Shown here: one piece after another, positions 1-14,110 of the stretch
Position numbering within the stretch: the first letter of the stretch is position 1
How the letters are laid out: each line of letters begins with the position of its first letter
Source: a virus
Lineage: Duplodnaviria > Heunggongvirae > Uroviricota > Caudoviricetes
DNA: 15,118 nucleotides
IMG/VR virus record: IMGVR_UViG_2740892439_000020
Coordinates: 1 to 15,118 of that record
Strand: one strand, 5' to 3'
Translations under genes and position numbers: made by a program
Notes under the pieces: model-generated
Database searches by the model: none
The model's input: the letters and a program-made list of their open reading frames with translations, nothing else
Told to the model about the DNA's origin: nothing

Positions 1-192
1 TCAGGAGCATTTCTGATTAACGCCACCGTTAAGAATCCACCCTTCAACAGCTTCACGAAGGTATGATTTGGGGTGGGTTCTGACTGGCTTCGGAAATCCG
101 TGGCGTTTGGTATAGTTCCAGATTGTCTGACGTGATGAAACACCGAGCTTGTTCATCACTTCTTTCTCAGGAATCAGGCTGGTATCGGTCAT
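1..192 (-). CDS. xis: excisionase-like small DNA-binding protein (Xis/AlpA-type HTH)
   Basis: 63-aa ORF; ATG at 190-192 with GGAGA 6 nt upstream; basic HTH-like sequence; sits at the distal end of the leftward early operon where lambdoid phages carry xis; its stop codon is the first triplet of the window, so int would lie outside. Confidence 0.55.
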   Translation of the reverse strand: MTDTSLIPEKEVMNKLGVSSRQTIWNYTKRHGFPKPVRTHPKSYLREAVEGWILNGGVNQKCS

Positions 193-206
193 CTTAATTC
201 TCCAGG

Positions 207-231
207 CAAAAATAAACCGCCATATAGCGGC
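207..231 (-). terminator. hairpin + T-tract element (minus-strand RNA GCCGC-UAUAUG-GCGGU then UUAUUUUUG) just upstream of the xis RBS
   Basis: 4-5 bp GC stem with 6-nt loop followed by T-run on minus strand; member of a repeated element family (see findings). Confidence 0.3.
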
Positions 232-271
232 TCTATCAGATATGAACAGGCCTCATCGAGTGTGAGGCGGG

Positions 272-616
272 TTAGTCCTTGCGTAGTTCGCTGATTCTTC
301 TGTAAGTCTCTGGTGCTTTGTTCCCGTACGTCTTCATTTCAGACTTCAACAGAGCAACGAGTGAATCCCATTCGTTGAGGATTCCTTTGAATGCCGGAAC
401 GCGCTTTGCAACCTTGTCGAATGAATCTCTGATTTCTGGAATCTGCTCAACAAGTGCAACGCATCGCCGGAAGTCTGCTGCGTCATGTGGAGCGCCGAAG
501 CTATGACCATAGATATTCTTTTTCAGGCCACATGCGATTGAGGCAAGAGTTGCGCTACTGATGCCAACATCGCCAGTCGATTGCCATTTCAAAACCTTCA
601 TAGCCAAATCTGACAT
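272..616 (-). CDS. hypothetical phage protein (114 aa)
   Basis: ORF in track 272..643; start moved to ATG 614-616 (MSDLAMKV...) because it has GGAGA 6 nt upstream, whereas the first 9 codons of the longer ORF are a translation of the terminator-like hairpin. Confidence 0.5.
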   Translation of the reverse strand: MSDLAMKVLKWQSTGDVGISSATLASIACGLKKNIYGHSFGAPHDAADFRRCVALVEQIPEIRDSFDKVAKRVPAFKGILNEWDSLVALLKSEMKTYGNKAPETYRRISELRKD

Positions 617-627
617 TTCTTGTCTCC

Positions 628-651
628 AATAAAAAACCGCCATCAGGCGGC
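628..651 (-). terminator. hairpin + T-tract element (minus-strand RNA GCCGCC-UGAU-GGCGG then UUUUUUAUU)
   Basis: perfect 5-bp GC stem CCGCC/GGCGG (637-650), 4-nt loop, U-run; lies at the junction of two small genes. Confidence 0.4.
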
Positions 652-810
652 TTGGTGTTCTTTCAGTTCTTCAATTCGAATATTGGTTATGTCTGCATGT
701 GCTGTCTGCGCCCATAGCATCCAGTGGTCATAGCAGTCATTGATGTTCTCTGCTTCGATAACTCTGTTGAATGGCTCTCCATTCCATTCACCTGTGACTC
801 GAAAGTGCAT
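643..810 (-). CDS. hypothetical small protein (55 aa, MHFRVTGEWNGEPFNRVIEAENINDCYDHW...)
   Basis: ORF not in the six-frame track (under 60 aa); ATG 808-810 with GGAGA 6 nt upstream; TGA at 643-645. Confidence 0.4.
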   Translation of the reverse strand: MHFRVTGEWNGEPFNRVIEAENINDCYDHWMLWAQTAHADITNIRIEELKEHQAA

Positions 811-823
811 TTATCATCTCCAT

Positions 824-846
824 AAAACAAAACCCGCCGTAGCGAG
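824..846 (-). terminator. putative rho-independent terminator
   Basis: minus-strand stem CUCGC/GCGGG (one G-U) followed by UUUUGUUUUAU, immediately upstream of the RBS of the 643..810 gene. Confidence 0.35.
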
Positions 847-850
847 TTCA

Positions 851-878
851 GATAAAAGAAATCCCCGCGAGTGCGAGG
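851..878 (-). terminator. putative rho-independent terminator downstream of the 899..1180 gene
   Basis: minus-strand 6-bp GC-rich stem (CCUCGC/GCGGGG, one G-U) with 4-nt loop followed by AUUUCUUUUAUC. Confidence 0.4.
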
Positions 879-898
879 ATAGTTACTTGTTCATATTA

Positions 899-1180
899 TT
901 AATCGTCAATGTATTTTGAGCATTGTGGGCAATCATCAATCCCACAATACGATTCATATGCATCCTTTATTGCGTCGCGGGCTTCAGTAAGAGTATTGAA
1001 TAAGTTGCAGCTATTATCTTTTTGATATAGGTAAGTTCCTAATTTATAAGCAGAAGAAGCATCATTTCCGCTGTCTAAAATTACATCGTTATGGATTCTG
1101 CACCTTGCAAGAACTCCTGATCCCATAAGGGTCTGCATAGCCCATTGCTCTTGATCTTCACACAAATCATGAATGCTCAT
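899..1180 (-). CDS. small Cys-containing protein (93 aa), possibly Ea8.5-like putative zinc-binding protein
   Basis: ORF 899..1198 in track; start moved to ATG 1178-1180 (MSIHDLCED...) which has GAGAGGTG upstream; C-terminal CGIDDCPQC motif; coding region is visibly AT-rich versus flanks; position corresponds to the ea8.5 slot of lambda. Confidence 0.45.
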   Translation of the reverse strand: MSIHDLCEDQEQWAMQTLMGSGVLARCRIHNDVILDSGNDASSAYKLGTYLYQKDNSCNLFNTLTEARDAIKDAYESYCGIDDCPQCSKYIDD

Positions 1181-1294
1181 TTCAACACCTCTCTTCACGT
1201 TTCACACACGTTAAGATTAACAGTGTTTTTACATGCTTTGGAAGATTTATTTTATAAAAACTCTTTTAATACAAATAGATATAATAGTTCACTA

Positions 1295-2065
1295 TTATAG
1301 CTCCTTTAATCGAGGCGGTTCTGGTAGAGGCATCCAGTGGGTTACCTCTTTGAGATACAGGTCTTCGCCATCACCGTCATCCCAAGTTGGATTGCCATCA
1401 TTAAACCAGTCGCCATATACGCCGACCTGAGTGTTGGGGATGTTTGGTGGGTAGTTGTTTTTAAAGTCAGCTGCTAACACATAGCATTGTCGCTCTCCCA
1501 TTTCTGGCATTCGCTCACTACAGCTTATCCAACCATCCGGAGTTACCGGAGAATTGCCAGACAGCTCGTTCAACTTGTAAGTTTGGCTTACAGGTTCGGC
1601 TTCCAGTTCTGCAATGCGCTTCTCTGCGGCTTCCAGCTTCTCGCGCATATCATCAACGTACTCGACCAGAGATCCGCCAGCAGGAATTTCGCACTCCTCG
1701 ACCAGTTGGAAGTAGATATCAGCTGCGGACCGTGTGTTGCTATGCCTAGCGTCGCCCATCTCACCTTCACGAAGAGCATCGCGTTCTGCGGTAAGATTGG
1801 CTATTTTGCTGTCTTTGCCTTCCAGCTCAACACGCAGTTTCCCTACCGTTAGCGCAATATCCTCGTTCTCCTGATCGCGGAGTTTGATGTATTGCTGGTT
1901 TCTTTCCCGTTCATCCAACAATGCCAGCGCGATATCTGGCGAAAAGTGCTTCATAAAATCGTTAAGCGCATTAATTCGCTGATCGAAAGGCATTACAGGT
2001 GCTTCACCAGCAATTTTTGTTTTTTCAGCGATTTCACGAAGCTTTTGATAATCAATCTTGCTCAC
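1295..2065 (-). CDS. Ead/Ea22-like protein with predicted coiled-coil middle and C-terminal DUF551-like domain
   Basis: 256-aa ORF, GTG start at 2063-2065; central heptad-like charged region (LEAAEKRIAELEAE); C-terminal W...RMPE...VTHWMPLPEPP signature typical of DUF551. Confidence 0.55.
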   Translation of the reverse strand: MSKIDYQKLREIAEKTKIAGEAPVMPFDQRINALNDFMKHFSPDIALALLDERERNQQYIKLRDQENEDIALTVGKLRVELEGKDSKIANLTAERDALREGEMGDARHSNTRSAADIYFQLVEECEIPAGGSLVEYVDDMREKLEAAEKRIAELEAEPVSQTYKLNELSGNSPVTPDGWISCSERMPEMGERQCYVLAADFKNNYPPNIPNTQVGVYGDWFNDGNPTWDDGDGEDLYLKEVTHWMPLPEPPRLKEL

Positions 2066-2306
2066 TGGTTGCCCCCTGCTTTTCTGCCTTCAACACCATG
2101 TGCGAACCATCATCCAGCTCCCACGCGATCTCACCACCTTCAGCCATGACCAGTCGCCACACCAATTGAGCAGCCTCATTGGTAACATCACGACCTGGAT
2201 CATTGCCAACGCGCATACGCCCACCTTCAACATCGCGCATTTTTGCCAGCATGATAGTTTTTGATAGCGGTGAAAAACCAAGCTGTAGTCGTGCTGAATT
2301 ACTCAC
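2052..2306 (-). CDS. hypothetical small protein (84 aa)
   Basis: ORF 2052..2333 in track; start moved to GTG 2304-2306, which has a strong AAAGGAGG 6 nt upstream; overlaps the next gene start by 14 nt. Confidence 0.45.
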
Positions 2307-2469
2307 TGGTTGCCTCCTTTGCGCACATCGCATTCAGATATTTGTTTTTATTCACTGATGGAAAAGAATTTCTCTTAAGCAATTCCTCTCTCGATGGCAT
2401 TGGCTTTACGCGTTGGCGAATAATCATTTCTGCCGGAAGAATGCCGGGATTGTATGCAAGTCCTCTCAT
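2299..2469 (-). CDS. hypothetical small protein (56 aa)
   Basis: part of track ORF 2299..2502; ATG 2467-2469 (MRGLAYNP...) has GAGGAA 7 nt upstream; alternative start at 2484-2486 overlaps the upstream gene. Confidence 0.35.
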
Positions 2470-2479
2470 GGTAAATTCC

Positions 2480-2776
2480 TCAGTCATTACTGATAGCGCC
2501 ATAGCGTGAGCGGTAATTACGCAGGCGCGGGTCGATATATTCAGGGAAGTGGGTATATGTGGCTTTGCGGAATGGTCGGATTGATGTTTCGTTTATTCGG
2601 TCTTTTTCCTGTTTTTCTGCGAGTTGTATATCGCGTCGGTACTTCCGTTCTTCTTTTGTTTCTGGTGGCAGAGCAAGAAACGCGTCGAGATTATTCTTGA
2701 TATTTTCCAGCACCTCCGATATGGAATTGCCGGAACAGCGGCGCGGGTCGTCCGCACCATATAGAGGCGCTGGCAT
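2480..2776 (-). CDS. hypothetical phage protein (98 aa)
   Basis: ATG 2774-2776 with AGGAGA 6 nt upstream; starts 15 nt downstream of the exonuclease stop. Confidence 0.5.
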
Positions 2777-2792
2777 GGTTTTCTCCTGTTGA

Positions 2793-3341
2793 TTATTTAG
2801 CTAACTTTTTCCAGATCGCTGAAACGTATTTGGCTTGGTGAATGGCATCATCAAGCGCGTTGTGGCGAGTTCCTTTGAATGGCATATCTCGCTTAGGGTC
2901 GAATCCTATTACCTTCCCAAGTTCGACGATTGTTCTTACGTCGCGGTCATTCCACCACTGCCACGGAACTGGCTGCCCTGTCAGCGAATAACTGTTTCGG
3001 AGAATAACGCAGTCAAATGATGCTCCATTCCCCCAAACCTGAACGAATTTGTGGTTAGCGTTCTTTATGATGAATTCAGATAACCATGAAAGAGCCGTTG
3101 AAAGCTCCTGAGTGTTGCTGGTTAGCGATTTTCTGGCTTCTTCACTCTGTTCCAGCCACCATAAAATCGTTGAAGCGTCAGGACGCGCCCGATATCGCAT
3201 TGATGACTCAAGCGAGATATTTACCGAGAACTCTTCTCCTGTTTCTCCGGTATTCGGGTCAAAGAATACCGCCCCAATAGAAATAACTGGCGCATATGGC
3301 CCGTTGCCCATTGTTTCAAGGTCAACCATTAAGTGATTCAT
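2793..3341 (-). CDS. DEDDh-family (DnaQ-like) 3'-5' exonuclease
   Basis: 182 aa; Exo I motif MVDLET, Exo II WGNGASFDCVIL, Exo III HNALDDAIHQAKY; AAGGA RBS. Confidence 0.75.
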   Translation of the reverse strand: MNHLMVDLETMGNGPYAPVISIGAVFFDPNTGETGEEFSVNISLESSMRYRARPDASTILWWLEQSEEARKSLTSNTQELSTALSWLSEFIIKNANHKFVQVWGNGASFDCVILRNSYSLTGQPVPWQWWNDRDVRTIVELGKVIGFDPKRDMPFKGTRHNALDDAIHQAKYVSAIWKKLAK

Positions 3342-3856: not shown

Positions 3857-4564
3857 TTATGCCGCCTGTTTTAGTTCGTTAACTCTGATGTTCATTACCT
3901 GAACGCATTTAGCCTGCGCCTCCTCATTGCCAGCCATTAATTGCCAGTCACGCTGATAACGCTCGATGAGTTTTTTCTTGTCAGTTTCTGTTGACGCATA
4001 ATCGCTGAAGTCTTTCAGGATTTGTTCGCAGTCAACCGATGGAGATTTCTGGTTGGTATTTTCTGGTGATGGTTTGTTATCTGATGCTGGTATTGCCCAT
4101 CCCGGCAGCGATGGAGGGAGCCAGTAAAATCCTGTTCCATCCTTCAGTTTTGCCCTGTGCCACCCCTGCTTTTTATCGAGAGATGTTTGTGCGAAACCTT
4201 CCTCAAGGTTATACAGATACCGACCGATTCCCCACTGAACGGCAGCGCGCTTCATTGCACCGGAACGACCACCTTTGACGGCTTCTACCTGCGTGTTTTC
4301 AGCAGCATCCCATTTGGTTACCCATTCGGAATCAATCTTTATTGATATGCCGCATTCAACGCCTCCGTTGTTGGGAATATCGCGGTATTCATTGCGCCAT
4401 CCTGCTTTTCCGCAAACATCGTCCAGGCGTTTCATGATTGCCCGGTTCGTGACATAAGCCAGCACCATAGCCCACACTTTGCCATCGCGTGTTTTACCGC
4501 TTTGCTGTATTCGCCATTCGATATCTTCAGGGCCGAATGGCTCATCGAATTTATTCAAATCCAT
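3857..4564 (-). CDS. single-strand annealing protein (Rad52/Erf-like recombinase)
   Basis: 235 aa; directly abuts ssb (TAA then ATG); N-terminal annealase-like region with RAAVQWGIGRYLYNL motif; GAGGTGA RBS; sub-family assignment uncertain. Confidence 0.65.
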   Translation of the reverse strand: MDLNKFDEPFGPEDIEWRIQQSGKTRDGKVWAMVLAYVTNRAIMKRLDDVCGKAGWRNEYRDIPNNGGVECGISIKIDSEWVTKWDAAENTQVEAVKGGRSGAMKRAAVQWGIGRYLYNLEEGFAQTSLDKKQGWHRAKLKDGTGFYWLPPSLPGWAIPASDNKPSPENTNQKSPSVDCEQILKDFSDYASTETDKKKLIERYQRDWQLMAGNEEAQAKCVQVMNIRVNELKQAA

Positions 4565-6500: not shown

Positions 6501-6528
6501 GGAAATAAAAAAGGGGCGAAAGCCCTTA
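6501..6528 (-). terminator. putative terminator immediately after the repressor gene
   Basis: minus-strand GGGC-UUUC-GCCC hairpin followed by CUUUUUUAUUU, starting at the repressor stop codon. Confidence 0.4.
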
Positions 6529-7176
6529 AGGAAGGTTTGCTAGCTTGGCATCAACGACAACGCCAATGATTTTACAGTTCCCATTGATTTCAATCATTGG
6601 GTATTGTGGATTGAGTGGTTTCAGGAATTTTCTACCGGCATCAATAACTAACTTTTTGAATGTCGCCTCGTTTTCTCCTTCAAGTTTGGCGACTACCAGC
6701 TTTCCATTACGTGGTTCGACTTCTGGGTCGACGAGAATAATCATCCCCTCAGGAATACTCAGTCCTGCCGGGGCAGTCATTGAATCGCCTTTAACGTCGA
6801 GCCAAAAAGAGTCTTCAGAACAATCTACCGTTGTGTCGTACCAGTTATCTATTGCACGCCTATGATATGGCTCTACAGCTTCCATCCAACATCCTGCGCT
6901 TACCCAACTAATTAGAGGATATGAACCTCTTGGATCATGCCTGCTGTGATAGGCAATGTTTGAAAGACTATCCTCTCCTTTCAACAGGTAATCAGGGGAG
7001 CACTGCAAAGCCTTGGCTAAGGCCAATAGGTTTTCGCCATTGGGCTCAGTTTCAGATCGCTCCCATTGGGAAATAGCAACATTAGACACGCCAACCATCT
7101 TGCCAAGGGCAGCCTGCCTAATCTTGAGTTCTTTTCTGCGAGCGCGAATACGCTCACCCATCAGTTGTGTATTCAT
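6526..7176 (-). CDS. c2: prophage repressor, C2/CI type (N-terminal HTH, C-terminal LexA-like S24 self-cleaving domain), P22 C2-like
   Basis: 216 aa; N-terminal domain (MNTQLMGERIRARR..QAALGKMVGVSNVAISQWERSE) matches my recollection of the P22 C2 DNA-binding domain; C-terminal Ser-Lys peptidase region (GDSMTAPAG...KLVVAKL...TFKKL); divergent from cro across an operator region. Confidence 0.85.
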   Translation of the reverse strand: MNTQLMGERIRARRKELKIRQAALGKMVGVSNVAISQWERSETEPNGENLLALAKALQCSPDYLLKGEDSLSNIAYHSRHDPRGSYPLISWVSAGCWMEAVEPYHRRAIDNWYDTTVDCSEDSFWLDVKGDSMTAPAGLSIPEGMIILVDPEVEPRNGKLVVAKLEGENEATFKKLVIDAGRKFLKPLNPQYPMIEINGNCKIIGVVVDAKLANLP

Positions 7177-14068: not shown

Positions 14069-14110
14069 TTGACTTTTTGAATAAAGTTGGGTAAATTTGA
14101 CTCAACGATG
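14069..14110 (+). promoter_or_regulatory. late promoter pR' with overlapping qut (Q-utilisation) site
   Basis: -35 TTGACT 14069-14074, 17-nt spacer, -10 TAAATT 14092-14097; region nearly identical to lambda pR' as recalled. Confidence 0.75.

Follow-up and report, generated by a model that had tools for sequence, protein, structure and literature searches.

An ea8.5 homologue in the early left region

The window, by which we mean the whole stretch of 15,118 nucleotides that was analysed, is the early region of a lambdoid/P22-like prophage. Its leftward genes include a cI-type repressor (6526-7176), an N-like gene, an Erf/Rad52 gene (3857-4564) and genes for an SSB, a 3'-5' exonuclease and an Abc2 anti-RecBCD protein. 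They continue with DUF2737, DUF7446 and Ea22/DUF551 (1295-2065) and end with an excisionase-like ORF at 1-192. The present analysis concerns a small gene at 899..1180 and the tract upstream of it. The original prediction had placed this gene in the slot held by ea8.5 in lambda and had read it, together with its AT-rich upstream tract and two hairpins that follow it, as an independently expressed moron. The features of the locus, in the direction of leftward transcription, are the following.

1295..2065, minus strand: upstream neighbour, an Ead/Ea22 coiled-coil protein with a C-terminal DUF551 domain (Pfam)
1281..1309, minus strand: best sense-strand sigma-70-like match, TTAAAG-17-TATTAT, a candidate only (PWM score 9.2)
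1277..1302, both strands: near-perfect palindrome of 26 bp, AGATATAATAGT-TC-ACTATTATAGCT (inverted-repeat search)
1216..1270, both strands: inverted repeat with 16-nt arms (1216-1231 and 1255-1270; 14 matches) and a 23-nt spacer (inverted-repeat search)
1181..1294, minus strand: AT-rich leader or intergenic tract that accompanies this ea8.5 allele (GC statistics)
1186..1193, minus strand: Shine-Dalgarno sequence GAGAGGTG, read from the sequence, with a GAGG core at 1191-1188, 7 nt 5' of the ATG
899..1180, minus strand: ea8.5-family gene, 93 aa from the ATG, encoding an acidic CHCC zinc protein
851..880, minus strand: intrinsic terminator 1, equivalent to lambda t3 (stem 880-861, U-tail 860-851; terminator scan and RNA fold), with a hairpin identical to that in lambda
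820..849, minus strand: intrinsic terminator 2, equivalent to lambda t4 (stem 849-830, tail 829-820; terminator scan and RNA fold)
643..810, minus strand: downstream neighbour, a homologue of lambda orf55 (phrog_676), part of the backbone with the terminators

The gene thus lies in the early-left operon at the position of ea8.5, between the Ead_Ea22/DUF551 gene and the orf55/xis block, and in this respect the prediction of a real small gene in the lambda slot was borne out. A GTG at 1198, which would lengthen the product to 99 aa, was considered as an alternative start and dropped, because the solved protein described below and lambda Ea8.5 both start at the ATG. The product is acidic, with a computed pI of 4.3. 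In a set of about 50 related loci the pN/pS ratio of the gene is approximately 0.34, and this polymorphism shows that it is under purifying selection. DNA matching 880-1300 is present in 111 of 5426 E. coli genomes, at an identity of at least 99%, with 91 of them spanning most of that interval, and also in 50 IMG/VR contigs.

The claim that the gene and its upstream tract are lower in GC than their flanks was checked with a GC scan, and the composition was found not to be uniform. The GC content of the span 899-1294 is 35.1%, whereas the window averages 47.0% (z = -3.1). Only 0.2% of 396-bp intervals reach so low a value, and the minimum for the entire window starts at 890. Within this span the gene has a GC content of 38.3% and a GC3 of 31.9%, against 43-50% for GC3 in ten neighbouring genes. 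The intergenic tract 1181-1294 stands at 27.2%, and the 96-bp portion 1199-1294, which had been singled out as very AT-rich, is indeed so, at 24.0% (z = -4.0). The coding sequence of lambda ea8.5 is similarly low in GC (38.7%), and the value here may reflect the history of the family rather than a recent import.

Two minor features of the coding sequence were noted. In two loci (L005, which is E. coli E3, and L073), an IS2-family insertion cuts this ea8.5 allele short at window position 985. In addition, an antisense sigma-70-like site, TTGATA-17-TATAAG, lies inside the gene at 1022-1050 on the plus strand. Its PWM score of 11.55 is the third best in the window and ranks with the pR'-, pL- and pR-like sites discussed below; the conserved T that ends the -10 hexamer is missing, and on the plus strand no terminator lies downstream of the site. 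This may be a spurious intragenic promoter of the kind that is typical of AT-rich DNA.

The product is identical to a protein of known structure

All 93 residues of the product are identical to residues 9-101 of PDB entry 2M7A, and at the protein level nothing distinguishes the two. The structure was reportedly described by Kwan et al. in 2013 (Biochemistry 52:3612). The text of the PDB entry names the protein as ORF ECO111_1119 of E. coli O111:H- str. 11128, "similar to bacteriophage lambda ea8.5". The passages on this structure in PMC8614690 and PMC7093339, which cite Kwan 2013, give the fold of 2M7A/Ea8.5 as a hybrid of homeodomain and zinc finger. An AF2 model of the product (pLDDT 86) superposes on 2M7A, and among PDB entries as of 2026 it matched 2M7A (E = 4e-10) and 2M7B, with nothing beyond these two at E below 1. 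Judging from this model, the fold still seems to be without other solved relatives in the PDB as of 2026. The small zinc-binding fold that had been proposed from the Cys and His residues is therefore already at hand as an experimental structure. The gene is already known, down to the identical solved structure, and its novelty is low.

The comparison with lambda Ea8.5 likewise upheld the original assignment. Pfam PF20735 (Lambda_ea8_5) was matched with 58.4 bits, above the gathering threshold of 27, and residues 14-99 of the 99-aa reading cover positions 1-90 of the 90 in the profile. Lambda Ea8.5 (lambdap36, 29374-29655) is also an acidic protein of 93 aa, and its gene lies in the same slot between ea22 and orf55 with the same twin terminators downstream; the two proteins can be aligned over their full length but are only 39% identical. 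A more distant member, PP_3909 of P. putida KT2440 (PDB 2M7B), has the same fold and ligand pattern, with an identity of 22% and a different host and phage background. A word-indexed protein search reached only near-identical proteins, whereas an exhaustive HMMER search reached the family and returned 89 cluster representatives. Two HMMER matches, of 1784 and 1668 aa, were discarded as false positives due to repeats or low complexity.

An alignment of 63 family members contains only four invariant columns, C27, H30, C84 and C87. Since these alone are invariant, the zinc site is best read from the alignment as CxxH...CxxC, a pattern that lambda Ea8.5 shares. The motif CGIDDCPQC, which had been taken to suggest zinc binding, is present and supplies C79, C84 and C87, but it is not itself the zinc site: C79, its first cysteine, is a glycine in lambda and is therefore no ligand candidate.

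Taken by itself, an ORF that is short and AT-rich, and for which a PHROGs search yields only families without known function, might be no gene at all but a chance ORF in AT-rich spacer DNA. This has virtually no probability and is already refuted. The protein was expressed and its structure solved (2M7A), the family numbers 89 cluster representatives in which the zinc ligands are invariant, the polymorphism data reveal purifying selection and a good Shine-Dalgarno sequence stands in front of the ORF. Its identity as an ea8.5 homologue cannot reasonably be refuted. Neither the locus tag nor the WP accession nor the Pfam name retrieved anything in a literature search. PADLOC found no defence-system match for Ea8.5, the orf55 homologue or the 123-aa ORF that lies further downstream, and for the Ea22-like protein it gave a PbeC match below threshold and nothing else.

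The gene and its leader as a cassette

The comparison of related phages shows that ea8.5 is one of several possible occupants of its slot. The same position holds an ASCH gene in L006, where it overlaps the DUF551 gene without a gap, a lambda-type ea8.5 behind a 202-bp gap in L007, P22 eag in L008 and a DUF4752 gene in phage mEp213. In phages N7 and HK140 the slot is empty, and the anchors equal to window positions 885 and 1314 are 48 bp apart, compared with 429 bp in the window. In both phages the DUF551 gene runs almost straight into the terminators, so that relative to these two phages ea8.5 and its leader are an insert of about 380 bp. In N7 (L021, about 1606-1660) the first 11 codons of an ASCH gene (VANLQLAVKGE) are fused to the TAA that precedes hairpin t3. 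This ASCH remnant would be a deletion scar, which implies that the slot was once occupied there.

The edges of homology delimit the insert. On the upstream side recombination has its edge in the last 15 or so DUF551 codons (1295-1345), and the edges of homology there cluster at 1337-1348, 1557-1559 and 1607-1647. In the 49 intact loci out of 51 the upstream edge lies at 1337 at least, inside the last DUF551 codons, and no mosaic breakpoint was found between 1181 and 1336 in any of these 49; the two exceptions (L071 and L073) are truncations. On the downstream side the edge is usually at 627/628, and in a few loci at 813-852, while in comparison with other phages homology breaks at the TAA(C) just 5' of the first hairpin. 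A boundary of homology with lambda inside the 3' end of ea8.5, suggested by a BLAST match extending to 945, was rejected; codon by codon the identity in this stretch is only 63-83%, and the sharp boundary is the stop codon. From these edges, the gene and its 114-bp AT-rich leader appear to travel together as a single mobile cassette of low GC; in other phages the slot is empty or carries unrelated genes. The exchange would take place by recombination in the last DUF551 codons and at the TAA(C) that immediately precedes terminator 1.

The gap of 114 bp is unusual for this operon, in which six gene junctions upstream range from -35 to +16 bp. The lambda allele also has a long upstream gap, of 191 bp, but at 39% GC rather than 27%, and the two leaders have no similarity.

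The twin terminators belong to the backbone

The two minus-strand hairpins that had been reported after the gene are both real, although the ranges first given for them, 851-878 and 824-846, are a few bases off the stems at 880-861 and 849-830. An RNA fold of 905-811 forms both hairpins and is more stable than shuffled sequences (z = -3.06), and t3 and t4 have been predicted before in lambda (Bloch et al. 2014, Table 4). The further claim that they are flanking signals of the gene itself was not borne out by the comparison of slot variants. Terminator 1 is kept in 48 of the 51 loci, and in other phages the hairpins persist without ea8.5, standing 3' of an ASCH gene, of a DUF4752 gene or directly of the DUF551 gene. 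Because the same hairpins follow other cargo or an empty slot, they are assigned to the orf55/xis backbone and form no part of the cassette; being present with or without ea8.5, they provide no evidence for a self-contained unit.

Positions 780-885 are 96% identical to lambda 29255-29360, and the interval 627-885, which comprises the orf55 homologue and both hairpins, is 95-97% identical in lambda and in many lambda-like phages. Some part of 600-2100 is matched in 3519 of the 5426 complete E. coli genomes, and among the E. coli matches listed 627-885 is the part matched most often. The likely role of the terminators, which we infer from their position, is to stop transcripts that are not antiterminated before they enter orf55, xis and int; xis and int would be shielded by them from transcription initiated within the slot.

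Further hairpins occur downstream. The 123-aa ORF at 272-643 has an ATG at 616 that is preceded by a GGAG ribosome-binding site, and its PHROG match begins at residue 10, so that this ATG is probably the start. With a start at 616, the hairpin at 653-634 (lambda t5) is intergenic and does not overlap the start codon. A fourth terminator-like hairpin is located at 233-214, and with it a terminator stands behind every one of the small genes distal to Ea22.

Family members in the nin region

Genes of the Ea8.5 family are also found in the rightward nin region, between the replication genes and NinB/NinG/Q (L009, L014, L015, L016 and L017), and the position between ea22 and orf55 is thus not universal for the PF20735 family. 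In L015 and L016 the Ea8.5-family gene directly follows Ea22/DUF551 genes, which means that the pairing of DUF551 and Ea8.5 recurs in two different operons. The enterobacterial nin-region genes of the family are preceded by AT-rich gaps of 111-286 bp, and their GC content is below that of their surroundings. A terminator stands just after the stop codon in three of the four distinct nin homologues (L014, L015/L016 and L017), with unrelated sequences; in L009 none was found at this position.

In L017 the 286-bp AT-rich upstream gap contains a near-consensus promoter, TTGTCA-17-TATAAT, at 2457-2485 on the minus strand. It has a PWM score of 15.5, matches 11 of 12 positions in the strict scan and points away from the Ea8.5 homologue, which suggests that this gap may be a divergent promoter region. 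Another family member, the 343-aa protein P0034, is called as a C-terminal fragment of a tyrosine recombinase fused to an Ea8.5-like domain. The fusion is probably an artefact of gene calling; it again puts the Ea8.5 family beside an integrase.

The leader and the search for a promoter

If ea8.5 has a private promoter, it is presumed to lie in the leader, 1181-1294. A strict sigma-70 scan of 1..3000 on both strands returned no sites. With a PWM the best sense-strand match, at 1309-1281, scores above the 99.99th percentile of window positions, but 30% of composition-matched shuffles of the tract reach the same score (p about 0.3), and the antisense strand of the leader has an equally good score. 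The method recovered likely promoters elsewhere: as a positive control, the sites at 14069 (+), 6437 (-) and 7199 (+) were among the four best matches of the window. We take their hexamers (TTGACT/TAAATT, TTGACC/TAAATT and TTGACT/GATAAT, respectively) to be those of lambda pR', a pL-like site and pR. The leader of lambda ea8.5 has a lower PWM score than the present one. Bloch et al. (2014), citing ribosome profiling by Liu et al. (2013), count ea8.5 among the genes that non-induced lambda lysogens express. This report covers the lambda allele only, and the lambda leader is unrelated in sequence to the leader here. Because the lambda leader scores worse despite its reported expression in lysogens, promoter scans have little power for this question. 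An independent transcript of ea8.5 in the present prophage is a plausible hypothesis.

The leader carries inverted repeats that are not random. The palindrome at 1277-1302 extends over the stop codon of the gene upstream and contains -10-like hexamers on both strands; an equally good short-loop inverted repeat occurred in 2 of 500 composition-matched shuffles. The longer repeat at 1216-1270 was reached by none of 500 shuffles, and it is absent from the minimum-free-energy fold of the RNA. This fold itself is of no unusual stability relative to shuffles (z = -1.36). A search of Rfam with 1..3000, at E up to 1, found no family above threshold; a mir-277 match with 20.9 bits, against a gathering score of 43, was taken as chance. 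Inspection of the leader by eye found no LexA or CRP boxes. Polymorphic sites comprise 4 of 114 in the leader and 7 of 53 synonymous sites in ea8.5 (Fisher p = 0.038, with all copies close relatives), weak evidence that the leader may be under constraint. The matches in the 111 E. coli genomes show 99% identity or more, which leaves almost no comparative power on the leader.

How ea8.5 is likely to be expressed

We favour the reading, which we hold to be probable but well short of assured, that the gene is an "EPEC-type" allele of lambda ea8.5 in a cargo slot, forming one cassette with its AT-rich leader and expressed both by read-through from pL and from a weak private transcript. The slot of lambdoid/P22-like prophages is bounded by the Ea22/DUF551 gene on one side and by the block of twin terminator, orf55 and excisionase on the other. 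During lytic growth, as the layout of the operon and what is known of lambda suggest, ea8.5 would be transcribed from pL along with the rest of the N-antiterminated leftward operon. While the prophage is repressed, a weak leader promoter would probably give rise to a short private transcript, and this would be stopped at 851-880 or 820-849, before orf55 and xis.

Others may prefer to see in ea8.5 an ordinary delayed-early gene of the pL operon that has no promoter of its own, with the AT-rich gap as a mosaic joint and the terminators as operon punctuation that is overridden by N antitermination. We regard this as a real possibility, albeit one about which we are somewhat doubtful. It agrees with the empty result of the strict promoter scan and with PWM matches that remain at the level of shuffles and are equal on both strands. 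The terminators, common to all slot variants, fit it as well, lambda ea8.5 is equally low in GC, and the literature treats the exo-xis genes as transcribed from pL. Against it speaks the expression of lambda ea8.5 in non-induced lysogens, as reported by Bloch et al. (2014). The leader is also more conserved than synonymous sites and holds two non-random inverted repeats. Moreover, the other slot cargo that was examined (ASCH) comes without a gap, whereas both ea8.5 alleles bring 114-202 bp with them, and the nin-region homologues repeat the gap and, in three cases of four, the terminator. One might also suppose that the leader is mainly a regulatory element rather than the seat of a simple promoter. 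As such it might consist of paired operators, in the 26-bp palindrome, to which a DNA-binding protein of phage or host attaches, or else be a nucleation site for H-NS silencing, or an RNA leader that controls the translation or stability of ea8.5 in the pL transcript. The two inverted repeats, which exceed 498-500 of 500 shuffles, the overlap of the palindrome with -10-like hexamers on both strands and the low polymorphism of the leader would all be consistent with this notion, as would its GC content of 24%, which in general is typical of H-NS targets. We nevertheless consider it improbable, given that the RNA fold is no more stable than shuffles, that no Rfam family scored above threshold and that the binding protein is only hypothetical. 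All copies of the leader are moreover close relatives, none divergent enough for covariation.

Allied to the last idea is a more specific one, that the leader, palindrome and 16-nt inverted repeat included, serves specifically to control ea8.5, as a promoter-operator pair or an H-NS-gated promoter from which the repressed prophage makes Ea8.5 while the twin terminators insulate xis and int. This appears unlikely to us on present evidence. Were it true, Ea8.5 would be a lysogenic-conversion factor that tunes host replication or the cell cycle, and not a lytic early protein.

Under the reading that we favour, with a cassette served by pL and by a weak private transcript, the proposed designation of the gene as a moron is only partly apt. 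Morons of lambdoid phages, as defined by Juhala and Hendrix, include lom and bor of lambda. Like these, ea8.5 adds DNA between two genes that lie side by side in related phages, it has a deviant composition and a terminator lies immediately downstream; the reported expression of the lambda homologue from a repressed prophage (Bloch et al. 2014) adds to the resemblance. What was found at this locus, then, is an insertion between otherwise adjacent genes together with a composition shift, and this part of the moron signature stands. The remainder is less secure: the terminators are part of the backbone and persist in phages with an empty slot, and the promoter prediction produced no strict site and a PWM candidate that is no better than shuffles. 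A further difference is that the cassette is co-oriented within the early-left operon, so that expression by read-through is guaranteed in any case.

Possible function of the protein

To our knowledge, Ea8.5 ranks among the few lambda proteins left whose structure is solved and whose mechanism is not known, and the current understanding of it is unchanged by these results. The product is a 93-aa acidic protein that binds a single zinc through Cys27, His30, Cys84 and Cys87. By homology with lambda Ea8.5, it may restrain both the initiation of host replication and the cell cycle and dampen cII-dependent promoters. Published work on lambda attributes to the exo-xis region an inhibition of host DNA replication and a synchronisation of the cell cycle, and to ea8.5 a lowered activity of paQ and pI. 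The structure authors propose protein partners instead of DNA for Ea8.5, and the acidic pI of 4.3 fits this published view that it binds proteins and not nucleic acid. By analogy, the present protein would most likely act through protein-protein contacts rather than by binding DNA. Int, Q and Ren have been reported as yeast two-hybrid partners of Ea8.5, which was flagged as promiscuous in such a screen, and MinE has been reported as a further partner (PMC8614690).
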